Part shown: positions 2,321 through 55,244 of the stretch, in pieces | How positions within the stretch are numbered: the first letter of the stretch is position 1 | Layout: each line of letters opens with the position of its first letter | Origin: a virus | Taxonomy: Duplodnaviria; Caudoviricetes | Strand: one strand, 5' to 3' | DNA: 56,985 nt | Virus record (IMG/VR): IMGVR_UViG_3300033153_003349 | Span: 1-56,985 of that record | Position numbers and translations under genes: made by a program | Notes under the pieces: model-generated | Told to the model about the DNA's origin: nothing | The model's database searches: none | What the model saw: only the letters and a program-made list of their open reading frames with translations

Positions 2321-3253
2321 TTAAGTTTCTGTTGTGTATAATGCTTCATAGGCTGCTTTAACCAACCCAGGTTTTCCTACATAATATAATGAAGGAGTAA
2401 AGGCATCCATTATTAAATAAGCTCTGCCTTCAGCTGCTTTAGTCTTAGCATTCAATAATACCTTTGACATATATCCTAAAATAGCCCTACGAGAAGACTC
2501 AGGGTCATCTGTTAAATTAGTTATAAGTCTAGCTATCACTTCCCATTTTTTCATAGCTATTAATGCCCTACATAATTCTATTACTGAATTTTGTTCCTCT
2601 GCTACCCTCCTTGCCATTTCCACAGCATCGTCTTTATTCAAACCTATTGTTTTTTCTAACATTGTCAAAGCTGCCCGTGGGGAACCTAAAGAATCACTAG
2701 CAATAATATCTAATACTTCAGGAAACGGTCTTGACCTCTCCTTACGAGAAATAGTTTTAACAAGCATTTTAATTTCATCTTCATTTAAAAAATCTACTAC
2801 ATAAGTGACACACCTATTCCTGGTTGTTTCTAACAGCTTCTCAGGATTGGTAGTAGCCAATATAAAATAAACATGAGACGGTGCTGATTCTAATGTCTTA
2901 AGTAAAGCATTTTCAGCCTCTGTAGTAAGCATATGACATTCGTCTAAAAACCAAACCCGTACATCTCCAGAAATAGGCTTCATGCCTACATTCCTTCTGA
3001 TTTTACGTATAGCCTCTATACCTCTGTCATCTGCCGTATCCATCTCAATAAAATCACGGTCACCGCAACCTAACTCATCTTTAACTATCTTAGCCAGAGT
3101 AGTCTTACCGCAACCACTTGGTCCTGTAAACAAAAACGATTGAGGAATTTCTGCTCTATCCCTTGTGAATATCTTCTGTAAAGATTTAATAGTAGCAGTA
3201 TTCCCTATCATATCTTCAAAATCTATAGGTCTGTATTTGTTATATAATGACAC
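2321..3253 (-). CDS. dnaX: DNA polymerase III gamma/tau-like clamp-loader AAA+ ATPase
   Basis: SLYNKYRP.FEDMIGN, Walker A GPSGCGKTT, LDECHML, NALLKTLE, FILATTNPEKL, NRC; GTG start after AGGAGG. Confidence 0.88.
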   Translation of the reverse strand: MSLYNKYRPIDFEDMIGNTATIKSLQKIFTRDRAEIPQSFLFTGPSGCGKTTLAKIVKDELGCGDRDFIEMDTADDRGIEAIRKIRRNVGMKPISGDVRVWFLDECHMLTTEAENALLKTLESAPSHVYFILATTNPEKLLETTRNRCVTYVVDFLNEDEIKMLVKTISRKERSRPFPEVLDIIASDSLGSPRAALTMLEKTIGLNKDDAVEMARRVAEEQNSVIELCRALIAMKKWEVIARLITNLTDDPESSRRAILGYMSKVLLNAKTKAAEGRAYLIMDAFTPSLYYVGKPGLVKAAYEALYTTET

Positions 3254-3308: not shown

Positions 3309-4043
3309 TTATTTTAACTCAAGAAATTCTTTGTAGCCGTTTGCTCTTATCTTACAGGCTGGACAACTCCCGCAACCATACCCCCAATCATGTCTTTTGG
3401 TTCTATCCCCTACATAACAAGTATGAGTATCTTCTATAATATCTTGAAGATAACCTAAATCATCAGCAAGTTTAAATGTCTGTGCTTTGGATAAATACAT
3501 TAGAGGAGTTTTAATAATAAAATTTGAAGAATCAAGACCTTCTCTAATTGTATGTGTCATTGCAGACACAACATTTTTTCTACAATCAGGATAACCAGAA
3601 TAATCAGTCTCACATACTCCTGTATATACAATATCTATTCCATTCAATCTTGCTATCGTTCCTGCTATCAGATAAAAGAATAAATTCCTGCCTGGAACAA
3701 AAGATACAGGAAGATTTGGAAATATAGGGTGACTACCTTCTATGTCCGCTGAAGGTTCTGTTAATCCAGACGGCACTTGTGAAAGAAAATCGAAAGGAAC
3801 CTCAAGAATAGGTATGCTGAACTTCTGTGCCCACATATCTACCATTTCTTTTTCTACCTTATGTCTTTGTCCATAATCAACAAATATTAAAAATCTTACA
3901 ATCGTTTCTTTCATAGCTACTAACAACGTGGTAACAGAATCCTGTCCACCGCTTATTAAAACAACTGATTCTCTCATCTTATCATATTCTCCTTCTTCTG
4001 GTCTATCGTCTACAGGCCACATAAAATTATCTTCAATTCCCAT
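3309..4043 (-). CDS. queC: 7-cyano-7-deazaguanine (preQ0) synthase
   Basis: SGGQDS PP-loop, DYGQRH, FVPGRN, ETDYSGYPDCR, TPLMYLSKA, THTCY, GCGSCPACKIR. Confidence 0.96.
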   Translation of the reverse strand: MGIEDNFMWPVDDRPEEGEYDKMRESVVLISGGQDSVTTLLVAMKETIVRFLIFVDYGQRHKVEKEMVDMWAQKFSIPILEVPFDFLSQVPSGLTEPSADIEGSHPIFPNLPVSFVPGRNLFFYLIAGTIARLNGIDIVYTGVCETDYSGYPDCRKNVVSAMTHTIREGLDSSNFIIKTPLMYLSKAQTFKLADDLGYLQDIIEDTHTCYVGDRTKRHDWGYGCGSCPACKIRANGYKEFLELK

Positions 4044-4044
4044 C

Positions 4045-4653
4045 TCATTTCTCCTCCTTGGTTCTGCTTCCGTTTTTCTTTAATTTAATCACGTTATCTA
4101 CATTCCCTATAAATGCAGTTACGTGAGTAACCATTACTAATTGTAACCTCAATTTGAGACAGACTTTCTCAAGAATTTTTTGCGTACTCTCCTGTAGGTT
4201 CCGACTCAAGTTCTTAAAGGGTTCATCGAAAAAAAGTATCGGTGCTGACTTATCTTTATTGAGACTCCAAAGAGATAAGCGTAAGGCAAACGAAACAACA
4301 TCAACAACTCCTCCCCCTACAGAATTCATAGGTTCAAGATACATCTCTCCTCTCCTCAAATATATATAAGCCTCACTCTGGTTTCTCTTTGTTTGAAAAT
4401 CTATCTCTACAGTATAAGGGTCATCGAATATAGCAGACAAACAAAGATTAGATATTTCAGTGATATGTAATATCATTTCATTTTGTACTAACGTGGCTGC
4501 TTCTTGTAGAATATACTGCGCCTCATATAAATTTTCAATCTTATTCTCCCCATGAAGAATATTTTTTTTCATTTCTCTTAATTTTTGTTTAGAAAAATCT
4601 CTTTTAACTATGAGACTATCATATCTAGTAAATAACGATTCTATTTCTGTCAT
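4045..4653 (-). CDS. Rad50/SbcC (gp46-like) C-terminal half: short coiled coil plus ABC signature, Walker B and H-loop
   Basis: SVGGGVVDVVSFALRLSL (signature region), ILFFDEPFKNL (Walker B/D-loop), VMVTH (H-loop); no Walker A. Confidence 0.85.
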   Translation of the reverse strand: MTEIESLFTRYDSLIVKRDFSKQKLREMKKNILHGENKIENLYEAQYILQEAATLVQNEMILHITEISNLCLSAIFDDPYTVEIDFQTKRNQSEAYIYLRRGEMYLEPMNSVGGGVVDVVSFALRLSLWSLNKDKSAPILFFDEPFKNLSRNLQESTQKILEKVCLKLRLQLVMVTHVTAFIGNVDNVIKLKKNGSRTKEEK

Positions 4654-4901
4654 TGCTTCTTCTCTATCTTCTCTAATTGAAGTTCAATTAAATCTAAATC
4701 CTTATCAATAGAATCTTCAAGAGAAATAATTTCTTTATCATATTTTTTCATTTTCAATCTTACATCATCAAGACCTCTGCAATTAAACTTCTCTTTAAGA
4801 GTTATATTCAATTGCTTAAGCTGCCCTTCAATGCTATCTCTCTCAGATTTAGCTTTACTGACTCGTTCTCTTACTCCAAATAACTTATCTTCATAGCTCA
4901 T
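4650..4901 (-). CDS. Small coiled-coil protein (83 aa), possibly a detached Rad50 arm segment
   Basis: GGAGG RBS, heptad pattern, ATGA overlap with the Rad50 C-half. Confidence 0.7.
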   Translation of the reverse strand: MSYEDKLFGVRERVSKAKSERDSIEGQLKQLNITLKEKFNCRGLDDVRLKMKKYDKEIISLEDSIDKDLDLIELQLEKIEKKQ

Positions 4902-4902
4902 A

Positions 4903-5808
4903 CTAACCTCCTACTGTTTTTATGACATCATCTATCTCTTCTTTAACTTCTTCTTTCACATCATTCTGTTTAATTATATTAGCTAATACAATATCATAAT
5001 CTATAGACACATCAATATCTGCATCAAATTTATCTACAAATTTTTCCATTCGTTCTGTATGTTCATGTTCCTGTTCTAATGCTTCAGTAGTCCATTCAGC
5101 TTCAACATCTATTTGATGTGATGACAACTCTTGTGTTTCCGTATCGTAAAGCCAGATAAGAGAATGTAATTTATGCTCACCGTAATCTGTTCTCATAATA
5201 GGCCCAGTATTCAAAATTACAGGCTTCTGTTTACTATCAACAAAAGGAGTATGAATATCCGAACAAACTATTAAGTCCATATCTGGATACATCTTACGTA
5301 TTTCTTTAGCAGAGAAGGCTGTTTGATGCCACGGAGGAGGCTGATTTTCGTATACAGGGGCGTGCATTATAGCTATGTTATTGATATCCTTAAGACGCTT
5401 TGATTCTTTCTGTGCTTCTTGTATCTCTCCCTTCCAAGGGATAGGGTATATAGTGGTATAATATTTAGGAAAAAATTTAGCCTCACTGAATATCTCTATC
5501 TTACCAGCAGCAGCTAACACATTAAGAGGAGATGATTCAATAAACTTCATATTATTTCCTGGAAGGTCATGATTCCCAGGAACAACTTTCATAAAAGGAA
5601 TCCATTTCATCAACCACGCATAATAATAATTAGAATTTCTTACTGTGTCAAACAAATCTCCTGCACAAAAAATTTCTGCATCATGTTCCATAGAGAAAGA
5701 ATTAAGAAAATCAAGTTTACTTGCTTGTATCTCTAACCAATCTCCTCCCCTAGACCTGGGAGCTTTCTCTCCTAAATGTACATCACCTATAAAAATAAGT
5801 TTACTCAT
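4903..5808 (-). CDS. Mre11/SbcD (gp47-like) metallophosphoesterase nuclease
   Basis: GDVH, AGDLFD, PGNHD, IMH, SDIH motifs; flanked by the two Rad50 halves. Confidence 0.9.
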   Translation of the reverse strand: MSKLIFIGDVHLGEKAPRSRGGDWLEIQASKLDFLNSFSMEHDAEIFCAGDLFDTVRNSNYYYAWLMKWIPFMKVVPGNHDLPGNNMKFIESSPLNVLAAAGKIEIFSEAKFFPKYYTTIYPIPWKGEIQEAQKESKRLKDINNIAIMHAPVYENQPPPWHQTAFSAKEIRKMYPDMDLIVCSDIHTPFVDSKQKPVILNTGPIMRTDYGEHKLHSLIWLYDTETQELSSHQIDVEAEWTTEALEQEHEHTERMEKFVDKFDADIDVSIDYDIVLANIIKQNDVKEEVKEEIDDVIKTVGG

Positions 5809-6868
5809 GATTATGTCCTTTCCTTATCCGTGATTTACATACAGGACAAAACCTCAATTTACTAAAAATTTCATCATAATTTTCTTGAGACTCTTTTAAT
5901 TCTTTTGCAGCTGAACGTTTCTCCTGTTGTAAAGCTATTAACTTTTTCTTCAGTATTGAAAGGTCTGCTTCTTCTTGACGCAAGACTTTAACTTTTTCAA
6001 TACTTTCTTCTATTGGTTTAATAGACTTTGTTTGAGCTATAACATCTGAAAGATACTTAAACTGTTTACTATAATCAGACAATTGTACAGCTAAATATTT
6101 CATCTGCTGTTGCTCTTCATAAAGCCTGTTTTTTTCTGTCACATTTTTATACAAAGCAGTTAAGACATCATCTAATTTATCTATATCTTCATAAACATCT
6201 ATATCTTCAAGTAAACATTCTACATCTTCAAAAATATTCGCAAGTTGTATTGACTTGTTTACTATTTTATTTTTCTTCTCATAATTAATCTTTAGCTCAC
6301 CAATAGAATCTTCAATATCTCCTAACCCTTGAAATGTTTTTAATTGACCTTTAAATTGGTCCTTTTCTTTCTCATAAAAAACAATTGAAGATTTTGTTTC
6401 TCTAACTCGTGAGTTTATCTCTTTAACATATTCATCTATACGAGACAAATCAACAATCTTGTTTAAAAACTTCGCCCTATCTCCTGGTTTCATAGATAAT
6501 AAAAACGGTGAGTCCATCTGCTTTTGGATGTTAATATCTTGGATGGACAAGATGGAGGTTAGAACTTCTGGAACACCTTGCCCGAAAGACGAGATTTCCT
6601 CACCGTTTATTATATATAAATTTTCTTTGTCACTTTTTAACCTAGTGATTTCATGTTCACCAACTGTAGCAGTAACAGACGTTGTTCCTCCCCATGAACT
6701 CCTGTAAGAATCGCCTGATGGCTTATTAAAAAACAACCAATACAACGCTCGTAAAACAGAGGACTTACCTGTGTCACTTTGTCCTACTATAACATTAATC
6801 CCATCTTCAAATTCTAATGTAGTTCGTTTGTGGGATTCAAAGTTTTTAATCGTTAGCTTATCAATCAT
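5801..6868 (-). CDS. Rad50/SbcC (gp46-like) N-terminal half: Walker A, coiled coil, terminal Zn-hook
   Basis: IDKLTIKNFESH, GQSDTGKSS, Q-loop QKQMD, long coiled coil, CPVC about 11 residues before the stop. Confidence 0.88.
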   Translation of the reverse strand: MIDKLTIKNFESHKRTTLEFEDGINVIVGQSDTGKSSVLRALYWLFFNKPSGDSYRSSWGGTTSVTATVGEHEITRLKSDKENLYIINGEEISSFGQGVPEVLTSILSIQDINIQKQMDSPFLLSMKPGDRAKFLNKIVDLSRIDEYVKEINSRVRETKSSIVFYEKEKDQFKGQLKTFQGLGDIEDSIGELKINYEKKNKIVNKSIQLANIFEDVECLLEDIDVYEDIDKLDDVLTALYKNVTEKNRLYEEQQQMKYLAVQLSDYSKQFKYLSDVIAQTKSIKPIEESIEKVKVLRQEEADLSILKKKLIALQQEKRSAAKELKESQENYDEIFSKLRFCPVCKSRIRKGHNHE

Positions 6869-7430
6869 CTATCCACTCTCCTGTTCTAAACGGAATGTGA
6901 TTCCACCAGTTTAATAAATTTTCAAAATTCATGACAGCATAATGGATAGATGTATTTCCTGCATCTCTGAGCATCATTACCCTGCCTTTGTTCTGTCCAA
7001 ATGTACGTACAGCTTTCCCGTAATCACTCCAAGGAAATATAACAAAGGTTTCTTTCCTATTCCTTCTGACAATAAGCATAACAGACTGACGTTTAGCGTA
7101 TCTCTTTTCACCTTCTGCTTTCTCTAACCATTTGAACACTACCGACAAAGATTTGTAATCAACAAAACTTAACAACTCAATATCTTTTGTGTACCCCCGC
7201 TTAAGCTCAAGTAAAAAGTAATCAATAAAAGGTTTTCCATCATCATCTATGAATGTTAAATCTCCATAGCTCCCTGCCGTAGACTTGCCTGACTTTTGTC
7301 GTTGGGTAGCCCTACCTCCTGATTGAGAAGTCCTCCAAAATATATCATCTCTCAAATCTTCTGTCCACCAAAGAGATAATTGTTTTGAAATCTCTCTCTC
7401 GAACTCACCACCTTTTAAACTCTTCCCCAT
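6861..7430 (-). CDS. PD-(D/E)XK Holliday junction resolvase-like nuclease
   Basis: KGGEFEREI, SGGRA...GDL, LLELKRGY, typical of phage Hjc-like resolvases; recombination gene context. Confidence 0.75.
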   Translation of the reverse strand: MGKSLKGGEFEREISKQLSLWWTEDLRDDIFWRTSQSGGRATQRQKSGKSTAGSYGDLTFIDDDGKPFIDYFLLELKRGYTKDIELLSFVDYKSLSVVFKWLEKAEGEKRYAKRQSVMLIVRRNRKETFVIFPWSDYGKAVRTFGQNKGRVMMLRDAGNTSIHYAVMNFENLLNWWNHIPFRTGEWIDD

Positions 7431-7694
7431 TTAACTTCTCCCAAAATTTATGTCAGTACGTTCATCCTTACGAACTATCTTGATGTTGTCACCTTTAACT
7501 CTTAAACTATACCGCTTATCGTCACGAGTTTTAATATCAATAAATCCGTTCTTAAGAGATTTGACTTCTCCATAACCGCAATTCATCTCAAATTCTTTTG
7601 TTCGAATTGTTATCCAGGCAGGTTCTTCAGCACACAAAATTGTAACTCTACTATCTTTGAATTCTACTAGCATATTGGCCTCCTTATTGTTCAA
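7431..7694 (-). CDS. Hypothetical protein (87 aa; possibly starts at the second Met)
   Basis: Fills the recA-resolvase gap; AGGAGG precedes the internal ATG (MLVEF). Confidence 0.6.
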   Translation of the reverse strand: MNNKEANMLVEFKDSRVTILCAEEPAWITIRTKEFEMNCGYGEVKSLKNGFIDIKTRDDKRYSLRVKGDNIKIVRKDERTDINFGRS

Positions 7695-8787
7695 ATCTTT
7701 TCTTTCTATCTAATTTAAGGTCACCCTCAATTTCTCTCCACAATTTCTGACAAAAACGTTTTACTTTTCGTTCAAGATTATTTTCTTCTATATGTTCTAT
7801 GAGCTTTGCTCTTGTCATTTCTACATCTAATCCGAGAGCTTTGATTGTTCTCCCTGTTTTCTTCCAATACTTATCTAGCACAAGAAAATCAATCATAGAA
7901 CCTATATCATCTATCCCTAAATCATTATAAATATTAAATTCAAAACTTCGCTTCTTTCCTGTGTATTTATTTTTCGTTATCTTTGCTCTGACACTACTAC
8001 CTACAACCCGCTTCCACTTTTCATTTTTAATCCCTCCCAGAAAAGCTAACCAGATTATTATAGAACAATAGAAATCAAGAGCTGCCCCTCCTGTCCTATA
8101 CTTCTTAGGCTCAAATGGGCCTGCCCCTATCTTATCTCTTGTCTGAGAAATTATTACTAATAAATTACCTGACTCCTCAAATTCTCGTTTAGTCTTACGA
8201 AAAAATTCACTCATGTACTTAGCTTTTTCAGCCTTGTAACTAGCCCCCAGGTCAGCTTCTTTCCCTGCATCTACCGCTTTCAAAAATTTATCCTGACGAG
8301 CAATCTCTTCATCAGAAGTTAAAGCATCCAAGGAATCTAAAATATATATAAAAGGTTTACCTACTTTGAGTAACCGATTTACATTAGTTATTAAATTTTG
8401 AACTGTGTTAGAATATACAGCTTCTTCATCTAAATAATATGGCGGGCGTATTCTTTCACTACCTACTTCCCCAAATAGATATTCCATATCAAAAGAATTA
8501 GCGGCTTCCACATCATCATAGATAAGTTCATAATCATTATAATTCTCAATATTTGCTACTGTAGCTAATACTGTCAAAGCTAAAATTGTTTTTCCTGTGT
8601 GACTATCTCCGACTATATTGACTACAGTTCCTGGTTTAAATGCTCCTCTACCATTATCCGTGCAAGCTATGTCAAACATAGATACACCAGAGGGAATAGG
8701 GGTCCAACCAGTGGACCCCTTTGTTTGAGATTTCTCTTTCATAACTTCCCTTATTTCCTTAATCAAGTTCGTCGAACGCATTACCAC
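7684..8787 (-). CDS. RecA/UvsX-like recombinase
   Basis: IPSG..FDIA, Walker A GDSHTGKT, YDDVE, ILDSLDAL, ISQTRDKIG, TGGAALDFYCS, KNK. Confidence 0.9.
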   Translation of the reverse strand: MVMRSTNLIKEIREVMKEKSQTKGSTGWTPIPSGVSMFDIACTDNGRGAFKPGTVVNIVGDSHTGKTILALTVLATVANIENYNDYELIYDDVEAANSFDMEYLFGEVGSERIRPPYYLDEEAVYSNTVQNLITNVNRLLKVGKPFIYILDSLDALTSDEEIARQDKFLKAVDAGKEADLGASYKAEKAKYMSEFFRKTKREFEESGNLLVIISQTRDKIGAGPFEPKKYRTGGAALDFYCSIIIWLAFLGGIKNEKWKRVVGSSVRAKITKNKYTGKKRSFEFNIYNDLGIDDIGSMIDFLVLDKYWKKTGRTIKALGLDVEMTRAKLIEHIEENNLERKVKRFCQKLWREIEGDLKLDRKKRFEQ

Positions 8788-42282: not shown

Positions 42283-42664
42283 TTTTAATTTTCCTTTCTA
42301 TCCACTTGTATATTCTGATTATAGCTTCATAAACTCTAACAAATATACTATGTTTTAGGTACCATTTAAAGGATTTAATTTCTTCTTGCCAAAATAACGA
42401 ATGAATCACATCAAATCCTATCAAGTGCATAATTAGATAATGCCATATAAAATCCCAATCATTTGTCTCGTAACCATACAAGCATAGGACACTCATACCA
42501 GCTATCCATTTAATTATCTTTGCTTGAATTCTTAAATTCTTTATCCAATCATAATCTGCTAAAGGAGCCATCATTCTTGAATATCGAGAATCATGAAAAG
42601 CTAATCCGATAATAAAAACAGCAGCTACATAATATCTATATATAATCAAGTATTCCATCAACAA
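42275..42664 (-). CDS. Membrane protein (129 aa)
   Basis: Several hydrophobic/aromatic segments; overlaps both neighbours. Confidence 0.6.
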   Translation of the reverse strand: MLMEYLIIYRYYVAAVFIIGLAFHDSRYSRMMAPLADYDWIKNLRIQAKIIKWIAGMSVLCLYGYETNDWDFIWHYLIMHLIGFDVIHSLFWQEEIKSFKWYLKHSIFVRVYEAIIRIYKWIERKIKNV

Positions 42665-45600
42665 ATCCCTTCATCTTCTATAGTAATCACTTCCGCTGTA
42701 TCTTCCACAACAATTATCTCTGGGACAAAAATCTTTACTTCCATACAAATAGAATTAAAATTTCCTAAGATAAGGAACGTTCCATTCAATGTACCTACAC
42801 CCTCCAACAATCCTGATAACTGTCCTATAGATTTAGCATCACTAGTTAGTGTTCCTGCCCCTGAAAAACTTGAAGACAAACCACCAACACCTACCAGCCC
42901 AGCAAGTAATTCTCCTGCACCAACTAAATCGGATGATAAAACCCCAACAGATTTTAAATCACCAGTAAGAGTACCCACCCCTGCTAATACAGTTGATAAA
43001 ATGCCTTCAACAGAACTATCTGATAATGTCCCAGTAAGATTACCTATCCCTTCCATAAGCACTGATAACAATCCAGTAGATTTTACATTACCAGTCAGTG
43101 TTCCCACACCTGCCATAATAACAGCTAAACCACCAGACCCATCGACAAGTATCCCAGTCAATCCTCCTACACCATCAAGACTTGATATTAATATCCCTAT
43201 ACTTTTTAAATCACCAGTAAATGTTCCTACACCATCAATAGTAATAGACAATTCACCTACACCATCTAAACTACCTGTTAACTCACCTATTCCATTTATA
43301 GTAGCTAATAATCTACCTATACCTTTCAAATCTCCTGTGTAAGTTCCAACTCCATTAGCAGTAAGAGACAATACTCCAACAGATTTAGCATCACCTGTCA
43401 GTGTTCCGATTCCTGCCATTATTGTTGATAGAGCATCTTCAGCATCATTATATAAAGTACCTGTTAAATCACCAAGACCTATTAAAGTAGATAACAATTC
43501 ACCTAATCCTTTAAGGTCTCCAGTGTAAGCTCCTACACCATCTGTACTCATAGATAATGCACCCACACTTTTAACATCACCAATCAATGCCCCTATACCA
43601 TTAGCAGTAAGAGACAATACGCCTACTGATTTAGCATCGCCAGTTAATCCTCCAATACCAGCCATTACAGTAGATAAAGCATCTATGAAAATATATTCAT
43701 AAGCACCTATATCCCAATTATCTCCCTGTGGTCTAGATACCCCATCAATATCATCATCAAATAAACCAGATAAATCTACTCCATTATTAACTGGAGGACT
43801 CTCAGCATCATTTGGTTTATGACTAGAATTTAAGTCGGGGTCAATTTCATAACCATTAGCACCTGGAGTAGGAGCATTAGCAACGTCTGCATCAAACCAA
43901 ATATTATAATCTACATTCTCAGTCCATGCACCAGTTACATTCAACATCGGAGCATCAGTTGTAGTGCATACTACTATATTATTCTTAAAATTAAGAGTGC
44001 ATCCAGACAAACTTGTATCAAATACCGTTACGTTGCCTTGTATCTGACTACCCGCAAGAATTGTATTATTATAAATATTTATAGTTGTATTTGCCTGACA
44101 AGTTTTAAATTTGATTAATGCTTTAACATAATCGTGACCATTAATTACATTATTATATACACTCCAAGTTCCAGACGCATCTTCTAAAAATACGCCTTGT
44201 GAATCAACTGGGTCGGTATTATCTAAATCAAAATAATTATATCTTATAATGCCATTACCACCAGCAGTTCCTTGATTTCTTTGAAAAGCATCGTTATGAC
44301 CAGAACCACTATTTAATATTCTAATGGTGGAATACTCTAAGATAATATTAGTATTCGCCTGAACTTGCATACCATCAGTTTGATTACTACTATTGGTAAC
44401 TGTTGTAAAATCGTAATATCTGATTGTGATATTGGTATTATCAAATATTCTCATTCCAATAGTCTCAGAGTCGTGGTATTTGATATGGTCAATAGTTACA
44501 TTGTCGGTATGTTCACATCGTACTGCATAGGTGGTAGGGTCTGTAACAGTCATACGAGACACTGTGACATAATCTGGTCCGGGATCAAGATCAATACCAT
44601 AATCCCTTGTACCTTCACCATCAATGATCACTTCTCCATCGTGGTCTTGGTCTATTCCTTTTTTAATTGTAATTAGGTTCCCTGCTGTACCACTGGCTGT
44701 TGGGGTCAGAGTTTCTAAGTAAGTTTTTGAAGTACTACCTCCTGAAATATAGACTGTATCGGCAGGAGATACAGAACCCCAATTTATATCAGCGAAAGAT
44801 TCCCATGCGTTAATCCATGAGGTTCCAGCGTTTGTTCCTGTTGCACCATTATCTACATACCAATTTGTTCCTGCGCTTTCAAAAACACCAGTTAAAGAAC
44901 CAACACCATCAGTAAGTAAAGACAACACACCAACAGATTTAGCATCACCAGTTAATGAACCAATCCCAGCCATAGTAGTTGATAAGTTTCCTGCTACTCC
45001 TGTTCCTAAAGTTCCTGATAATCCCCCTGTTCCTGCCATTGTAGTTGATAATATGCCTACGGATTTAGCATCACCAGTTAAGGAACCAACCCCTGCCATA
45101 GTTGTAGAGAGAGCATCATCACCACCTAAATCCTCAATAGAACCAAAAGTAATAAACCCAGCCGTATTAAAAAAGTTGTCGTGGTTTGCAGAAACCCAAT
45201 CCGCATTTCTATCTATACTATGAATTCTAAATTCAGCAATTTCTATATCGGAACAATTACTGGAACTGCTTTGTCCTGTGGCTAAATACCATACATCATT
45301 TGATATACTATTAGCATCTGTGTTTGTGCCGTCTGCAACACCATCCATATAATATTTTAATTCGTCTGTTCCAGTACCTTCTCTAACAGCAACCGCATGA
45401 TGATAATTTATTGAATCAGGCCAGAGAGAATCTGCTGGTCTATCATCACCACTATATACACCCCAATAAGTATTAGCATCATCTAACTTGAGGTTAAAAC
45501 TTGGTGAGTATTGTCCATTCCCAAAAATACCTTCCCAAGTATTACCATTATCAGATATACGTTTTACCAATGCTTCAAAAGTATAATTTCCCGTTCCAAT

Positions 45601-47370
45601 CCCATGAGCAACTGTTGATGCTGACCTTTGAATATCGTTCCCATCAAAATAAGAATACCTGCCTATTGGTCCACCAATTTGATTATTTTGTGCATCACCC
45701 AAAGTAACTGTTGTGAAGTTAATTCCATTAGAAGTTCTATCATTCCAATCTCTAAAAGCTATTACTGTCTCATGGTATTGGTCGTAAGCATTATATTGAC
45801 CATAGGTTGAATCTACCGCTGGTTTTGTAGCTCCGACTTTCCCCCACCACATATATATAATCGTATCAACAGTTGAAGAAACTGCTGGTATTTTAACAGC
45901 TATTTCAAGAATACCATTAGCAGGAGTATTATCAGGAACACACGCCCGTATATCAACAGGAATTTCAGTTGTTCCTGCTGAATCAGATGTAAACCTAATA
46001 TCATTACCACCACTAATCATAGACCTTGTACCATCGGCATCCAATGGTCCATTTACTTGTGTTAATACGGAATCATAATCTTCATCAAATACTAAGGTCC
46101 AATTAGACAGATTAGAACCTATATCATCACTCTCAATAGTTATAGGAATCTTAAATAACCAACCAGTAGGAAAAGAAGCCCCATCACCCAAAGTGCCTGT
46201 TAAAGAACCAACTCCTGCCATTGTGGTTGATAAAACTCCAACAGACTTTACATCACCTGTTAAAGAACCAATTCCTGCCATTGTGGTTGATAAGGCATCA
46301 TCACCGTCTAAATCCTCAATTGTACTAAAAGTTAAAAACCCAGCTATATTAAAAAAGGATTTGTAGTTAGCATTTTGCCAAGAAGCACTTCGGTCTGTTA
46401 GATGAATCCTTGCCTCTGAAATGCTAACATCTCCACCATATTTCCCAGTCGTATTCCTGCCTGACCCTAAGTGCATTTGAAGGTCATCTCTTACGGTATT
46501 GCTATTACTATCAGTACCATCAGCAGACCCATCATGATAAAATAAAATTTCATCATCCCCTGTACCTATTCTTGTTGCAAATTGATGATGATAATTTGCA
46601 TCAAAAGGCCAATACCAACCCGACTGCAAATTGGATGTATTAATATTTATACCAGAGGACTGAGAGTTTATCTCCTGAAACACACCTATTCCACCGTATG
46701 ACTGCCCCATCCAGCCCTGATATGTTTCCCCTGTATCTGTATCTCCTAAAAGAACACCCTCAACTGAAAAATTGCCCGTTCCTATACTTTGAAACGAAAA
46801 ATCCTCTGTTGTTCTTTGAACATCACTCACTGTAAATACACTTTGACGACCAAGTGGTCCACCAGTTTGTGCTATTAATGGTGTCCCATAATAATCATCA
46901 TCAAAATCAACACCATAACTTGTTCTATCAACCCAAGTACGCATATCCATAACCATAATATGGTCAGCATCATACGCATTGTATTGACCATAGGTAGCAT
47001 CAACAGCAGGTTTTGTAGCCCCTGCCTTACCCCACCAAAAGTATATAACTGTATCTACTGTACTGGAAACAAAAGGAACTTTGGCTGCTATCTCAAGTTC
47101 CCCATTAGCTGGTGTGTTATCTATCACTGCTGTTCGTATATCAACAGGAATTTCGGTATTGCCATCCGTATCGGTACTCATACGAATATCATTACCGCCA
47201 TTAATCATGGAACGGGTTCCATCGGCATCCAATGGACCATCGACCTGTGTAAATACAGAATTAAATGCTTGGTCAAATACTAATGTCCAATCAGTTAAAT
47301 CGGCAGATACATCAGTACTTTCAATAGTTATAGAAAGTCTATGCTTATACCCATCAGCAAGGAGGCCCAA
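42658..47370 (-). CDS. Large virion appendage protein: two DUF2341-like + LamG modules, a right-handed beta-helix, ~21 20-aa spacer repeats
   Basis: Two homologous modules (GGNDIR..D..G.TEIPVDIR...K.P.VSSTVDT.IY.WWG); TNWYVDNGATGTNAGTSW...RPQGDNWDIGAYEY beta-helix; LSTTMAG.GSLTGD.KSVG repeats. Confidence 0.8.
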   Translation of the reverse strand: MGLLADGYKHRLSITIESTDVSADLTDWTLVFDQAFNSVFTQVDGPLDADGTRSMINGGNDIRMSTDTDGNTEIPVDIRTAVIDNTPANGELEIAAKVPFVSSTVDTVIYFWWGKAGATKPAVDATYGQYNAYDADHIMVMDMRTWVDRTSYGVDFDDDYYGTPLIAQTGGPLGRQSVFTVSDVQRTTEDFSFQSIGTGNFSVEGVLLGDTDTGETYQGWMGQSYGGIGVFQEINSQSSGININTSNLQSGWYWPFDANYHHQFATRIGTGDDEILFYHDGSADGTDSNSNTVRDDLQMHLGSGRNTTGKYGGDVSISEARIHLTDRSASWQNANYKSFFNIAGFLTFSTIEDLDGDDALSTTMAGIGSLTGDVKSVGVLSTTMAGVGSLTGTLGDGASFPTGWLFKIPITIESDDIGSNLSNWTLVFDEDYDSVLTQVNGPLDADGTRSMISGGNDIRFTSDSAGTTEIPVDIRACVPDNTPANGILEIAVKIPAVSSTVDTIIYMWWGKVGATKPAVDSTYGQYNAYDQYHETVIAFRDWNDRTSNGINFTTVTLGDAQNNQIGGPIGRYSYFDGNDIQRSASTVAHGIGTGNYTFEALVKRISDNGNTWEGIFGNGQYSPSFNLKLDDANTYWGVYSGDDRPADSLWPDSINYHHAVAVREGTGTDELKYYMDGVADGTNTDANSISNDVWYLATGQSSSSNCSDIEIAEFRIHSIDRNADWVSANHDNFFNTAGFITFGSIEDLGGDDALSTTMAGVGSLTGDAKSVGILSTTMAGTGGLSGTLGTGVAGNLSTTMAGIGSLTGDAKSVGVLSLLTDGVGSLTGVFESAGTNWYVDNGATGTNAGTSWINAWESFADINWGSVSPADTVYISGGSTSKTYLETLTPTASGTAGNLITIKKGIDQDHDGEVIIDGEGTRDYGIDLDPGPDYVTVSRMTVTDPTTYAVRCEHTDNVTIDHIKYHDSETIGMRIFDNTNITIRYYDFTTVTNSSNQTDGMQVQANTNIILEYSTIRILNSGSGHNDAFQRNQGTAGGNGIIRYNYFDLDNTDPVDSQGVFLEDASGTWSVYNNVINGHDYVKALIKFKTCQANTTINIYNNTILAGSQIQGNVTVFDTSLSGCTLNFKNNIVVCTTTDAPMLNVTGAWTENVDYNIWFDADVANAPTPGANGYEIDPDLNSSHKPNDAESPPVNNGVDLSGLFDDDIDGVSRPQGDNWDIGAYEYIFIDALSTVMAGIGGLTGDAKSVGVLSLTANGIGALIGDVKSVGALSMSTDGVGAYTGDLKGLGELLSTLIGLGDLTGTLYNDAEDALSTIMAGIGTLTGDAKSVGVLSLTANGVGTYTGDLKGIGRLLATINGIGELTGSLDGVGELSITIDGVGTFTGDLKSIGILISSLDGVGGLTGILVDGSGGLAVIMAGVGTLTGNVKSTGLLSVLMEGIGNLTGTLSDSSVEGILSTVLAGVGTLTGDLKSVGVLSSDLVGAGELLAGLVGVGGLSSSFSGAGTLTSDAKSIGQLSGLLEGVGTLNGTFLILGNFNSICMEVKIFVPEIIVVEDTAEVITIEDEGIC
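42770..46300 (-). repeat. ~60-nt (20-aa) degenerate repeats in three blocks: ~15 copies at 42770-43680, 4 at 44880-45120, 2 at 46185-46300
   Basis: Consensus LSTTMAG(I/V)G(S/T)LTGD(A/V/L)KSVG(V/I) read from the translation; block limits approximate. Confidence 0.85.
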
Positions 47371-48977: not shown

Positions 48978-51761
48978 TTATTTGCCTATCATAAATATAG
49001 ATAAAGTAACATCTCTCAATATTAAATTTCTTGAATTTGTAGTTGTGGTTCTTGCCCACAATTCCACTGTATCACCAATAGCCAAATCAACTATTCCAGA
49101 AGCATGCATAGAACCAACATCTGCTACTGTTCCTATTGCCCTTTCTGTGTGAACATTCGTTTTTCCCGTTGCTCCATCATTTACAAATAATTGTATTTCA
49201 AAAGTTGTAGACACAGTGCCAGTCACAACCATAGATACATTCACCATATATTTACCAGCAACAAGTATTGTTAAATGATCATTAGTATGATCGGGTGTTA
49301 CCCCCTCTGATAACCCATCAGTATCAAAATACAAAAATTGATACCAAATATCCTTTGTACTCAATACAGTAGAAGAACCATTTTCAAGAACAGTTAATTC
49401 ACCATAACAAAGGTTTAATGCTTTAATATTTTCATGTATATATTTACCACCAACGGAACTTGTAACACCATTAAAAAGTAATTTAGAAACCTCCCCCTCA
49501 TAAACAATACCATCGTAAACGATATTAACTAAATGTTGTCCACTCAATAACTCCGTACCCCAAAAATTAAGATATTCATCTGGAACTAAATCATTAAAGA
49601 ATGAAAGTTTGCCAGATGGTATATTAAACTGAATAAAATATAAATGATCCACACCACTCATTGTATATGAATGATAAAGGACATCATCAACATAGAGCTT
49701 AAAATCATTTCCTTTTTTATCTAATGTTAATTTTACTTCTGAACCAACATCTATTCCTGTTGCTACAATTGATGATGCAAGAGAATCTGTTTCTAATTCT
49801 AATTCCCCTGAATATTTCAATCTATAACTTATAAATTCATTAAAAGGATCACTTGAAAAAACAATGTAAGAACTATTTAAACCACCAACACTTAAATCAA
49901 TAAAATAACCACCATTAAAATTTATAAATTCTTTTCCCGATGTTACTGGTGTGATATCATAACCAGAAGCATCAATATTAAATTCTAATGTGTTCTCAAA
50001 TACAGCTTCCCTGACATCTTGCTTATCAGAATTTAAAGCAAATAGTTCACCTTCCTGAACATCAACTATTGGGAAATTATCAACCAACGTAACAGCTTTA
50101 TCAATCTTAGAATCTATCTTTTCATTTACAGTAGTCGTATCATCATAAGCAACTAAATCACCTGTTGTTTTGATATTTTTATGTTCTGCAAAATAATCTG
50201 CTCTATACCACGCACTTAATTGAGGTGCTGGTTGTTGCTCCATTACAACACCTTCTACTGAGATAAATTTAAAAAGATTATCTCCTATTACAGCAGAGTC
50301 ACCAGATTCTTGTTCATAAGTGCAGTTAAGCCAATCACCCATCAAATAAAACACATCTCCTGCTGTTCCTTTAACATCAATACCTTGAGGGTCAGTAGGG
50401 GCTTCACCTGTTAAATCATCTGTGTGGATTAATACATCATCTTGATAAACAGTAAAAACTTCTCCTGTTTTTCTGAGTTCTATTTTAACAATACTCTCAT
50501 TAATATAAGAACCTATAACAACATCAGTAACATTATGAGTAGAATAAACAATTTGATTATTATATGTACGAATCCAAATAAAATAATTTAACCCAAAAAC
50601 AATATCTGTGAATGCTAAAGTTCCTATTTTTTGTATATCATTTAATCTCATCTTTATTGTTGACGACCAATTAGTTACTCCCGCTAAAGTTGTTACTCGA
50701 TATGTTGTATGGTTGTCTCCTTCAACCAATTCCAACATTACCGCATCTTCTTGAATTACTTCTCTGACATCCTGCTTATCAGAATTTAAAGCATACAACT
50801 CACCTTCTTCCACACCAGAAGTAGGGAAATTATCAACTAAGTTTACTTTAGCTAATGCTTTGATATTTTTATAAGTAATTGATTTTATATATAAGGAATA
50901 ATCTCCTGCCCAAATAAAACTATCATAGCCTGCAAGATCATTATAAACAACCCCATTTAAATCTATTTGAGTAATTGGGTTATTATCAATATTATCAATA
51001 TTAATTAAATCATCTAAAAATATTACAGGAGAACCAGACCCCGTAGTAAACCTAAGTTCATTTAACTTATGGTGACTGACATCAAGAGTAGCAGTATGTT
51101 TTAATACCCCATCCACATAAATTTTAACTTCCAACCCTATTTTCACAAACGACAATAAAAATTCCTGATCTTCTGGATAAGCCCCACTTTCAACAACCAA
51201 ATCACCATTATCAATTATTTTACCCTGTCCTCCAACATTTATATAATAGATACCCCCAAGACCATCACCAAATGTTATTTTAAAAGATTGAGTAAACCCA
51301 AGATAAGCTGGCATATAAAGTTTAACACTAAATGTGGCATTAATTTGATCTGGAGAATCTGTGTGGGAAAACCGAGCTTCTTGATCTGAATCTAAAGAAA
51401 ATATTTTAACATATTCAATATCTGTAACTTCTTTTACATTCTGTTTATCAGAATTAAGAGCATACAACTCCCCCTCTTGAACATCAACAACTGGGAAATT
51501 ATCAACCAACTTAACTTTGGCTGGTAAATCTATAGATGTAAAGGTTATAGTAACATACTGAGTACCATCCCATACATACCTCTTAGTCATATTACCAGCA
51601 TCTACATCAGACTGTAATTGGATAGCCTGTCCTTTTACTCTACTATCAATAGGAATATCATTTAAAGTATTTAAAATAGTGTCAGCATCTAAAGGTGAAT
51701 CCCCAGCAGCATATAACCCCGCTTGTATTGGGGTGGCCTTATCTCTAAAATCATTTACCAT
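48978..51761 (-). CDS. Modular fibre/receptor-binding-like protein (927 aa): three lectin-like cassettes and a C1q/TNF-like C-terminal domain
   Basis: Three LVDNFP..VQEGELYALNSDKQ linkers, each followed by a divergent beta-sandwich ending (Y/H)(K/E)NIK; C-terminal DHLTILVAGKYMVNVS...IVDLAIGDTVELW. Confidence 0.75.
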   Translation of the reverse strand: MVNDFRDKATPIQAGLYAAGDSPLDADTILNTLNDIPIDSRVKGQAIQLQSDVDAGNMTKRYVWDGTQYVTITFTSIDLPAKVKLVDNFPVVDVQEGELYALNSDKQNVKEVTDIEYVKIFSLDSDQEARFSHTDSPDQINATFSVKLYMPAYLGFTQSFKITFGDGLGGIYYINVGGQGKIIDNGDLVVESGAYPEDQEFLLSFVKIGLEVKIYVDGVLKHTATLDVSHHKLNELRFTTGSGSPVIFLDDLINIDNIDNNPITQIDLNGVVYNDLAGYDSFIWAGDYSLYIKSITYKNIKALAKVNLVDNFPTSGVEEGELYALNSDKQDVREVIQEDAVMLELVEGDNHTTYRVTTLAGVTNWSSTIKMRLNDIQKIGTLAFTDIVFGLNYFIWIRTYNNQIVYSTHNVTDVVIGSYINESIVKIELRKTGEVFTVYQDDVLIHTDDLTGEAPTDPQGIDVKGTAGDVFYLMGDWLNCTYEQESGDSAVIGDNLFKFISVEGVVMEQQPAPQLSAWYRADYFAEHKNIKTTGDLVAYDDTTTVNEKIDSKIDKAVTLVDNFPIVDVQEGELFALNSDKQDVREAVFENTLEFNIDASGYDITPVTSGKEFINFNGGYFIDLSVGGLNSSYIVFSSDPFNEFISYRLKYSGELELETDSLASSIVATGIDVGSEVKLTLDKKGNDFKLYVDDVLYHSYTMSGVDHLYFIQFNIPSGKLSFFNDLVPDEYLNFWGTELLSGQHLVNIVYDGIVYEGEVSKLLFNGVTSSVGGKYIHENIKALNLCYGELTVLENGSSTVLSTKDIWYQFLYFDTDGLSEGVTPDHTNDHLTILVAGKYMVNVSMVVTGTVSTTFEIQLFVNDGATGKTNVHTERAIGTVADVGSMHASGIVDLAIGDTVELWARTTTTNSRNLILRDVTLSIFMIGK
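50007..51509 (-). repeat. Three 81-nt dispersed repeats (50007-50087, 50760-50840, 51429-51509)
   Basis: Clear DNA-level similarity (e.g. GGGAAATTATCAAC, TTATCAGAATT); they encode the 27-aa linker. Confidence 0.85.
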
Positions 51762-53666: not shown

Positions 53667-55244
53667 TTAAGGATTAGAAAAGTTAAGTTCGTCTGGAGCA
53701 TTCAACGGGAAATTAAGTCCAGTGTTTTCAGTTATAGTAAATTCTCCTTCAACCCACTCAGCACCGTCAAGACCCATACCGACAAGAATAATAATTGCAT
53801 CAGTTCCAGGTGTTCTTCCTCCCTGAATGTTTCCTGCGTAATCAAAGGTAAAAGCTATTGTTCCAGTAGCAATCGCTCCAGTAATATCAGCATCCCCATC
53901 ATCTTTAACAAGGAGAGCCGTGGCACTATCAAATGCGTTTCCGTTTGCATCTTTAAAGTACATCCAATATTTAGCATTAGTATCATCTATAAGAGCCTGA
54001 TTAAATACCATGTTCCCCGCAGATATGAACGGATAGGTTCTTAACGTAGAAGTAATAGGAACATCTTCAGAATCAAGACCTCCTCCATCTACTGTAATAT
54101 CATGTAGCTTTATCTTGTCCGTAAAATTTGGGTCGAAGTCATCAAAGCAAACTCCATCCCATCCATGAAGGTCTGTACCAATAAAATAAGAAAGACGAAC
54201 AGCAACATTCCCATTTACCACCCCATACCCAAGAGTTTCACCATCATCATTAATATCATTAGTCTGTCTGTTCTTATTTTGAGTAAAAGCATAATTTTGT
54301 TCGGTATCAGCTTTATTTGTTGGATTAGAAACAACTGCTCTATTAAAAGCATAATAACCAGTACCAACTTGTCTTTCTCCTTCATAAGCTACAAATGTTC
54401 CTGTTCCACCTTCATTTGTATAATCAATAACTCCTGCTGCATCAAGAGTACCAGGAACAGAACATCTAAACCAACGGTCAGCCTCGTCTTGGCCCACCTC
54501 ATCTTGTGTATAAGATTTTTCTGCTGCGGATTCAAAAGTATGTCCTATATAATATTGAAGCTCCATTGATTGAAAAGGCTCATTCGCTCCTTCCACATAA
54601 GTATCATCGTAAGTAGGATTCATTGAGTTATCAGTCGAATTAGCCAAAGGCAAACGATATGCAATATATGTTAATGCTGAATACCCCTGCTCTTTAAGTA
54701 TATCATATTCATCATAAGTCTTTAACTCCTCACGAAGGAAAGCCTTATTATAAGTACGGAAATCATTAACACCTTCATCGTTAATCTGAATAGCCTCGTT
54801 TAGCTGTCCAGTAGAACCGAAGGGAACAGCCGTTTCAGTAAAACCAGCTGCCGTGGTATAATACCCTTGGTCAACGTCATCATCATCAAATGTGCCTAAC
54901 GAAATGAAACAAGCCCATTCATCAAGGTCTACTTCTTGCCACCCTGCATCACGAAGTAAATCTCTTGTTGTTGCGTCAGCCCAAGTCCAACTATTCCTAA
55001 TTACATACTTTGCTTCATAAATAGGTTTAATTGGGAACCGATACCTGTTCAAGAATAAACCAGAATCAAGTCTCCACTCCTCTTTACTAAATGAATACAT
55101 AGCTTGTAAGGCTACCCCCGAAGCAGAGCGTGGGGCTGTATCTGTCAAATTCCCTGCTGCTATCAACTGCATTGTTTTTGAACCAGGAACAAATACTACT
55201 TCTACTCCTTGATTCAACTGGTCAGGATCAACTATTTTTGGCAT
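53667..55244 (-). CDS. Putative virion structural protein (525 aa)
   Basis: Acidic, G/T/D-rich; MPKIVDPDQLNQG...MYSFSKEEW; ends ...NFSNP. Confidence 0.7.
   Translation of the reverse strand: MPKIVDPDQLNQGVEVVFVPGSKTMQLIAAGNLTDTAPRSASGVALQAMYSFSKEEWRLDSGLFLNRYRFPIKPIYEAKYVIRNSWTWADATTRDLLRDAGWQEVDLDEWACFISLGTFDDDDVDQGYYTTAAGFTETAVPFGSTGQLNEAIQINDEGVNDFRTYNKAFLREELKTYDEYDILKEQGYSALTYIAYRLPLANSTDNSMNPTYDDTYVEGANEPFQSMELQYYIGHTFESAAEKSYTQDEVGQDEADRWFRCSVPGTLDAAGVIDYTNEGGTGTFVAYEGERQVGTGYYAFNRAVVSNPTNKADTEQNYAFTQNKNRQTNDINDDGETLGYGVVNGNVAVRLSYFIGTDLHGWDGVCFDDFDPNFTDKIKLHDITVDGGGLDSEDVPITSTLRTYPFISAGNMVFNQALIDDTNAKYWMYFKDANGNAFDSATALLVKDDGDADITGAIATGTIAFTFDYAGNIQGGRTPGTDAIIILVGMGLDGAEWVEGEFTITENTGLNFPLNAPDELNFSNP

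Follow-up and report, generated by a model that had tools for sequence, protein, structure and literature searches.

Models of the Mre11-Rad50 complex have ATP-driven head movements reach the zinc hook through a continuous antiparallel coiled coil. What, then, is to be made of a locus in which the Rad50-type chain stops just past its hook and the other half of the ATPase is encoded by a separate gene? This arrangement is found at positions 4045-6868 of the IMG/VR record IMGVR_UViG_3300033153_003349, a linear, uncultured viral contig of 56,985 bases with an estimated completeness of 78%, which we analysed over its whole length (56,985 nt; hereafter the window). All genes of the window are carried by the minus strand, and its tape measure, major tail, portal, and terminase proteins are read as those of a siphovirus-like tailed phage. 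Four minus-strand open reading frames (ORFs) fill the locus: the N-half of a Rad50/SbcC ATPase, an Mre11/SbcD-type nuclease, a helical protein of 83 amino acids (aa), and the C-half of the ATPase. From sequence comparisons and structural models, we consider it fairly probable that they encode the phage's own Mre11-Rad50 (SbcCD, T4 gp46/gp47-type) nuclease for recombination and end processing, with Rad50 made as three polypeptides.

Two halves of a Rad50/SbcC ATPase flank an Mre11-type nuclease

The N-half (355 aa; 5801..6868) consists of an ABC-ATPase N-lobe, an arm of approximately 196 residues, a CPVC zinc hook, and an 11-residue tail. Its family matches are AAA_23 (5.1e-12), AAA_15 (8.5e-11), phrog_16465 (1.1e-33), and the SbcC-like phrog_77 (3e-20), and the closest solved relative of its profile is the Rad50 chain 3aux_A (4.1e-15). 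The N-lobe modelled with AlphaFold2 (AF2) resembles the heads of Rad50, SMC, and RecF (Z 10-13.8); the comparison with Rad50 1f2t_A gives Z 11.6 and a root-mean-square deviation (rmsd) of 2.9 over 115 residues. Motif conservation was scored in alignments of 62 non-redundant sequences. The Walker A motif or P-loop (GxxxxGKS, residues 29-36; 6761..6784) has G29, G34, K35, and a serine or threonine at position 36 in 62/62 sequences, and the Q-loop residue Q117 is equally constant (62/62). An amphipathic helix with an unbroken a/d hydrophobic seam forms the arm (residues 141-337; 5858..6448) and leads to the CPVC motif (residues 341-344; 5837..5848), in which C341 and C344 are present in 62/62 and P342 in at least 90%.

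Only 11 residues separate the hook from the C-terminus in the window, and the chain ends 4-23 residues past the hook (median tail 7 aa) in 62/62 sequences, at approximately 25% identity. Across the N-halves, the hook context reads C-P-x-C-G-x-x-hydrophobic, after which the chain ends; CPxCG at the chain end is predicted to be a canonical apex-type zinc hook. We take CPxCG with a hydrophobic residue at +7 to agree with the hook of P. furiosus Rad50.

The C-half (202 aa; 4045..4653) begins with an N-terminal helix of approximately 50 aa and continues as an ABC C-lobe. It matches phrog_15167 ('ATPase'; 9.5e-21), and a Pfam search of the 202-aa protein returned no match. Since the phrog_15167 profile spans just 211 positions, C-halves that stand alone already constitute a separate family. 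Rad50 3aux_A is again the closest solved relative of the profile (4.7e-7). The signature motif (GGG, residues 113-115; 4309..4317) has G113 in 59/62, G114 in 60/62, and G115 in 62/62 sequences, within S-V-G-G-G in the window and [A/S]-S-G-G-G in most relatives. It is followed by Walker B (hhhhDEPF, residues 139-146; 4216..4239), with D143, E144, P145, and F146 in 62/62, and by the H-loop histidine H177 (4123..4125; His in 52/62). Curated cut-offs for whole proteins were missed (65.4 bits versus 700 for the NCBIfam Rad50 profile PRK03918, 29.7 versus 40 for Pfam SMC_N), which is expected since these proteins are pieces of a chain.

Between the halves lies the nuclease (301 aa; 4903..5808), which matches Metallophos (calcineurin-like phosphoesterase; 2e-10) and the SbcD-like phrog_100 (2.5e-15), and whose PDB matches are all Mre11/SbcD (8/8, best 1.4e-4). 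Mre11 motifs I-V are present as D9/H11, G50 D51, G78 H80 D81, H149, and D184 H186. Among the 62 sequences D9, G50, D51, G78, H80, H149, and H186 are invariant, and H11, D81, G183, and D184 reach at least 90%. The genes are tightly packed: the N-half gene overlaps the nuclease gene by 8 nt, a single nucleotide separates the nuclease stop from the ATG of the 83-aa ORF, which has GGAGG 7 nt on its 5' side, and the 83-aa ORF and the C-half gene share an ATGA overlap. Translational coupling of genes packed in this way would supply the ATPase pieces together. An initial annotation, made from the letters of this stretch alone, had described an ATPase cut right after its hook, the order of the four genes, the motifs of either half, and the two overlaps and 1-nt gap with GGAGG. 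All of these are present, the motifs at conserved alignment columns.

The split recurs in a large family of phages

Is the split a property of this contig or of a family? We scanned IMG/VR with the C-half profile and used the best 80 of 93 relatives; adding the window and two previously found loci gives 83, some of them redundant. Searches with hidden Markov models (HMMs) found the N-half in 73 of these, the nuclease in 79, and a homolog of the small ORF in 82, a count that is partly circular, the small-ORF HMM having been trained on 61 of the 83. Where all four genes are present, 58/61 non-redundant related loci have the order N-half, nuclease, small gene, C-half. The nuclease gene lies within the cluster in 61/61, the small gene and the C-half gene overlap or adjoin in 51/61, and 25/61 are tight blocks with every gap at most 60 nt. 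Identity among related loci is approximately 25-35%, and the window's nearest relatives reach at most approximately 41%. Since the split recurs in 58/61 related loci at such identities, it is beyond chance or error. In the contigs L081-L083 (IMG/VR, approximately 128-135 kb), where the order is nuclease, small gene, N-half, C-half, the ATPase halves are directly adjacent yet separate.

For the ratio of nonsynonymous to synonymous substitution rates (dN/dS), 12 pairs of relatives were analysed, most of them saturated. The pairs with dS <1, all relatives and not the window, give N-half values of 0.11-0.26, small-protein values of 0.025-0.32, and C-half values of 0.085-0.12, which points to purifying selection on every piece in relatives. 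The initial annotation had argued that a whole gene between the halves rules out a sequencing frameshift, and had proposed looking for the same synteny in other phages, for conservation of the 83-aa ORF, and for relaxed selection on the pieces. We did so: the four genes travel together, the small ORF has homologs in 82 of the 83 loci, and selection in relatives is purifying instead of relaxed.

A search with HMMER of 1.84 billion cluster representatives (50% identity) gave 4662 C-half relatives at E<=1e-3, 847 of them at E<=1e-30, and 143 of the best 150 span 180-235 aa. Neither a tblastn search with the C-half nor a blastn search with 6 kb matched any of 50,697 phage records, and a scan of prokaryote genomes with the C-half profile gave 3 loci only, with one search pattern. 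Cultured phages nevertheless carry the split. In the Bacillus phage vB_BboS-125 the genes are gp32, gp34, and gp35, in the Bacillus prophage phBC6A51 they are BC1852, BC1854, and BC1855, and the Tunturiibacter phage Tunturi_5 has the same layout (gp181, gp180, gp179), with family HMMs matching its N-half and nuclease only. The order in these three is N-half, small gene, C-half, colinear with a single chain. vB_BboS-125 (NC_048735.1) also has a 326-aa Mre11/SbcD-type ORF (L085:8247-9227; nuclease HMM 5.9e-19) between gp36 and gp37, in a stretch without an annotated CDS (coding sequence).

In the Bacillus phage 0305phi8-36 (NC_009760.1; L084:3972-8008), nuclease and N-half are joined in one protein, gp8, which ends in CPTC; a small helical protein follows as gp7, which the small-protein HMM does not match, and the C-half is gp5, annotated 'ATPase' (C-half HMM 5.3e-23). 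Between gp7 and gp5 lies an unexplained 238-aa gene, gp6. Yoshida et al. 2011 (PMC3175470) noted the P-loop segment of the 0305phi8-36 protein as 'missing' and took the C-lobe as absent; judging from the HMM matches, the 'missing' segment corresponds to the separate gene gp5, which was overlooked in that paper (PMC3175470). The Mre11-Rad50 fusions treated there, of the Mimivirus R555 type, thus have a member in the split family, although the window nuclease is unfused.

A broken gene, with a once-intact rad50 in decay, or an assembly or sequencing artefact has in its favour only the unusual layout and the origin in an uncultured contig estimated to be 78% complete. The whole gene between the pieces, the cut 4-23 residues past the hook in all 62 sequences, the constraint on every piece in relatives, and the presence of the layout in independently sequenced cultured phages make it scarcely credible. 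A search of the full-text literature, which left subscription journals and supplements outside, found no description of a natural Rad50/SbcC split; the split is real, widespread, and apparently undescribed in print.

A small helical protein as a candidate third piece of the arm

What does the 83-aa protein (4650..4901) contribute? The AF2 model has a predicted local distance difference test (pLDDT) score of 95.4 and consists of helices 3-39 and 44-82 joined by a conserved 4-residue loop (40-43). The protein is thus helical, as the initial annotation had it, but not the uninterrupted coiled coil that it had described. Residues 1-83 of the AF2 model are colinear with single coiled-coil helices of 74-81 aa (rmsd 4.6-8), so that the protein is modelled as an extended, kinked strand. 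An HMM built from the 60 other small ORFs (leave-one-out) has 4650-4901 as its sole match among the 217 window ORFs of at least 40 aa (E 3.7e-12). The family is otherwise hard to place: PDB sequences gave generic coiled coils only, Foldseek gave nothing at E<=0.001, and structural comparison by VIA gave Z<=6.5, which is uninformative about family.

We folded all four proteins of the locus together, supplying the 62-row alignment of each, and scored the small protein as partner. The score was 0.40 (runs 0.41, 0.40, and 0.38), and the best of 3 controls reached 0.01: replacing the small protein in two controls gave 0.00 and 0.00, and replacing the N-half alone gave 0.01. The runs share at least 92% of contacts, with a partner pLDDT of at least 79. 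In calibration, the mark was reached by 116/157 solved complexes and 2/215 mismatched pairs, and scores of at most 0.60 comprise only 18 of the 157 solved complexes plus both passing mismatches; these counts come from single-chain pairs with other alignments and hold only roughly for a four-chain fold. This is modest evidence from modelling that the 83-aa protein is a subunit whose site would need the N-half, beyond the nuclease or C-half alone. Overall, the protein is probably a third piece or subunit of the ATPase arm.

A different origin is suggested by the company the small gene keeps. It directly follows the nuclease gene in 34/61 loci (gap of at most 25 nt, or overlap), and in the broken clusters L018, L024, L038, and L081-L083 it is found with the nuclease. 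The protein could on these grounds be a detached Mre11/SbcD C-terminal helix-loop-helix that links the nuclease to the coiled-coil base, for which its two-helix architecture would be apt. A precedent exists in Lamassu, where LmuC was proposed to derive from the SbcD C-terminal domain (PMC12663957). However, the nuclease retains its own conserved helical C-terminal region, and a profile comparison of the small protein with the nuclease found nothing (probability 0.1). The small gene lies away from the nuclease in vB_BboS-125, phBC6A51, and Tunturi_5, and 0305phi8-36 keeps it even though its nuclease is fused to the N-half. In the fold, moreover, the score collapsed to 0.01 when the N-half was replaced while nuclease and C-half were retained. 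We regard this origin as rather improbable.

The arm changes length in steps, in the N-half alone

If the small protein and the C-half helix supplied the return strand, their lengths might be expected to follow that of the arm. The arm sequence has an unbroken 3.5/7-residue hydrophobic periodicity, without a conserved Pro/Gly break, and its autocorrelation has an extra peak at lag 44-47, which indicates tandem modules. The AF2 model of the N-half (62-row alignment; mean pLDDT 84.9) has arm helices 141-178, 182-226, 229-281, and 284-337, with kinks at 179-181, 227-228, and 282-283. Residues 180-340 are colinear with single helices of 155-161 aa at rmsd 9.0-12.5 (2v71_B, 9.0 over 160; 9ff9_A, 10.6 over 161; 2efr_A, 12.5 over 155), and the modelled arm is therefore extended with small kinks and not folded back, in a monomer model that cannot settle the matter of a fold-back.

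Arm length in the 62 sequences was counted from the position equivalent to D145 up to the first cysteine of the hook (196 residues in the window). The lengths fall into classes of 141-149 aa (14 loci), 182-197 aa (33 loci, including the window), 223-237 aa (14 loci), and 274 aa (1 locus), with a mean step of approximately 43 aa. All variation is confined to the middle of the arm (window residues approximately 222-285), and every class keeps the proximal ~75 aa and the distal ~55 aa. A tree of the head domains only requires 16 or more changes of length class, compared with a possible minimum of 3; counting just those that well-supported branches demand, the three main classes account for at least 5, 3, and 5. 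Among the close relatives L081-L083, one arm module has been gained (229 versus 274 aa). Sequence comparison thus indicates that arm length evolves through modules of approximately 43-47 aa, gained or lost only midway along the N-half. Periodic length constraints have been described for SMC arms and 'probably also' Rad50 by Burmann et al. 2017 (PMC5344682); the stepwise phage arm agrees with this, but in one strand only.

The other pieces do not follow. The small protein measures 70-99 aa (sd 4.5, standard deviation) and the C-half segment before Q57 47-70 aa (sd 3.4) across the 62 sequences, with no covariation with arm length (Pearson r=0.04, p=0.73). N-halves of 471 and 518 aa occur in the cultured Bacillus phages, with the hook near the C-terminal end (CPLC at residue 505 of the 518-aa chain), so that, subtracting a head of ~150 aa, arms of roughly 310-355 aa stand beside small proteins of 77-78 aa. 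A candidate return strand would have at most ~125 aa, from ~78 helical residues of the small protein and ~45-50 of the N-terminal helix of the C-half. Antiparallel strands of equal length within one polypeptide are accordingly not what is found here: there are three polypeptides, and 196 residues face at most ~125. Because the lengths are short and uncoupled from arm length, the small protein and the C-half helix are not a residue-for-residue return strand. The trans assembly proposed in the initial annotation thus survives in part: binding of the 83-aa protein finds some support in the fold (0.40 versus 0.01, a weak result), but its supplying the whole descending strand does not agree with the lengths or their lack of correlation.

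One way to account for these lengths is that the arm pairs with itself, through a second N-half or by folding back, with the 83-aa protein as an accessory such as a hook clamp, adaptor, or regulator. Arm modules of ~43 aa vary in the N-half alone, at least approximately 5 times independently and uncompensated elsewhere, and a change in a single gene would lengthen both strands only if the arm were self-paired. The small protein is also of constant size beside N-halves of 295 to 518 aa, and forms in which it is fused to the C-half were not found in our searches. Against self-pairing stand the extended AF2 arm, the g-e' charges, which lend no support to an in-register parallel homodimer, and the dependence of the small-protein fold score on the N-half. 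The order N-half, small gene, C-half in the Bacillus/Tunturi clade, colinear with a single chain, and the apex-type context of the hook argue in the same direction. We judge self-pairing unlikely, while giving it more weight than a nuclease origin of the small protein. Fold-back of the arm as such was raised because the length variation is all mid-arm, and was not retained; the AF2 monomer model is extended.

In the three-polypeptide Rad50 that we favour, the N-lobe and the C-lobe would reassemble in trans into one ABC head. Rad50 head halves expressed separately reportedly reassemble, in work by Hopfner from 2000. The PDB pairs 1f2t_A/B and 1ii8_A/B are among the matches of the two halves. 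The C-half helix would pair with the base of the arm, where C-terminal helices of the nuclease would also dock, and the small protein would run antiparallel along the N-half arm, standing in as a separate piece for part of the return strand. One zinc would be shared by two hooks, and the arm residues left uncovered would be taken up either by additional small-protein molecules or by the other arm of an M2R2 complex. More tentatively, and with rather less than even confidence, we propose that this is a Rad50 that does not need a continuous intramolecular arm, in which a modular single chain of ~43-47-aa units, with the canonical hook at its end, is met by a return strand that is partial and supplied in trans by a detachable 80-aa subunit and the C-half helix.

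Several observations weigh against a small protein that simply continues the arm. Some 70 arm residues in the window, and more in long-armed relatives, have no one-to-one partner. The Atlas model of the 83-aa protein has structural neighbours that include an RND adaptor and CorA. These neighbours are, as we take it, helical hairpins. They suggest a hairpin, as opposed to the extended helix from AF2, and both being monomer models, they cannot decide between the two shapes. The four-chain fold returned its score without contact positions for the small protein, and its pass falls in a weak class, rated 'more often wrong than right unless the guess was likely beforehand'. In-register parallel pairing of two N-halves found no support in the mid-arm g-e' charge test, a weak one, which counted 24 attractive versus 39 repulsive pairs. 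As to gene order, 3/61 loci have nuclease, small gene, N-half, C-half, so that the small gene precedes the N-half, and in several broken clusters it keeps with the nuclease and not with the C-half. None of the best 150 C-half representatives is a fusion of small protein and C-half or of N-half and small protein, and searches for longer, fused proteins, run with the N-half and the alignment of the small protein as queries, scored none, which is weak evidence; such an absence is odd if the pieces are simply contiguous.

Two sets of candidates were rejected along the way. P0075, the sole representative among the top 150 with an N-terminal extension of the C-half, was considered as a fusion of small protein and C-half; the extension is hydrophobic (membrane-like by eye) and has no match to the small-protein HMM. 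In 11 loci, additional small ORFs separate the small gene from the C-half gene; these were considered as further arm pieces, and lack homology to the small protein.

Comparison with known Rad50 and SbcC systems

Phage T4 offers a close comparison. Like the window cluster, T4 gp46/gp47 and other phage Mre11-Rad50 (SbcCD-like) nucleases combine an ABC-ATPase that has all the head motifs (Walker A, Q-loop, signature, Walker B, H-loop), an arm, and a CPxC hook with an Mre11-type nuclease encoded next to it, the pair belonging to a replication/recombination module. The family nuclease HMM matches gp47 (1.5e-14). By contrast, T4 gp46 is a single 560-aa chain with CPTC mid-chain at residue 288, and the split-family ATPase HMMs do not match it. 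T4 genes 46.1 and 46.2 (L087:2982-3432), which lie between nuclease gene 47 and ATPase gene 46, encode non-helical proteins with no relation to the small protein.

The solved Rad50/SbcC chains (3aux_A, 1f2t_A/B, 1ii8_A/B, 3qf7_A, and 6s6v_C) resemble both halves by sequence and the N-lobe by fold (Z 10-11.6). In archaeal and bacterial Rad50/SbcC, however, the antiparallel coiled coil is intramolecular and symmetric, whereas the return strand of the phage would come in separate, shorter pieces. Ralstonia phage RP13 differs in another way: ORF136 combines a nuclease with a complete single-chain Rad50 (CPSC at 611 of 925), and the split-family ATPase HMMs do not match its Rad50 C-lobe part.

Genomic context and a possible role in defence

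Around the cluster lies a replication/recombination module with a PDDEXK_15/RusA-like nuclease gene (6861-7430), a gene for a UvsX/RecA-like recombinase (7684-8787), a clamp loader gene (2321-3253), and genes for a helicase and a primase. The PDDEXK_15/RusA-like gene shares 8 nt (6861-6868) with the beginning of the N-half gene, and for this reason the resolvase-like gene appears to be translationally coupled to the cluster.

These neighbours bear on whether the cluster might be a phage-borne defence or exclusion system of the kind with an SMC-like ABC-ATPase, such as Lamassu LmuB or a relative. The PADLOC LmuB profile PDLC03859 is matched colinearly by the N-half (4.7e-13, positions 5-341) and the C-half (2.8e-8, positions 439-597), and the ~98 profile positions between the two correspond roughly to the size of the small protein. 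Lamassu LmuB/LmuC also combines an SbcC-derived SMC-like ATPase with a small separate partner; LmuB, though, is a single chain working with toxic effectors in host defence (PMC12663957), whereas the phage cluster has an intact Mre11 nuclease. Similarity to LmuB is expected, since the LmuB family derives from SbcC (PMC12663957). PADLOC found no LmuA or LmuC in the cluster, only the LmuB profile similarity. The partner of the ATPase is instead an Mre11-type phosphoesterase with all catalytic motifs and no PADLOC match, the best solved and NCBIfam relatives are Rad50, and the surroundings hold the UvsX-like recombinase, the PDDEXK resolvase, and the replication genes listed above. We therefore hold a defence function to be very unlikely.

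QueE-like (771-1499), QueD-like (1816-2349), and QueC (3309-4043) genes, all on the minus strand, flank the cluster. Going by these genes, synthesis of a 7-deazaguanine precursor by the phage is probable, and DNA modification is a possible use for it. Elsewhere in the window, four large minus-strand ORFs of 1570 aa (42658-47370), 927 aa (48978-51761), 525 aa (53667-55244), and 529 aa (55262-56851) have no PHROG match at 1e-5.

Implications

The pieces of these ATPases are at present labelled 'exonuclease', 'hypothetical protein', 'ATPase', or 'chromosome segregation ATPase', annotations that the present analysis corrects. Beyond this, a large natural family (4662 representatives), with its chain cut past the hook, a short detached return strand, and an arm that varies in steps, would offer ready separation-of-function variants. 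If the proposed arrangement is true, evolution could retune arm length by gaining or losing modules in a single gene. The role of the arm, as a spacer or hook tether or as a force-transmitting rod, could then be tested with natural variants of 3, 4, 5, and 6 modules.

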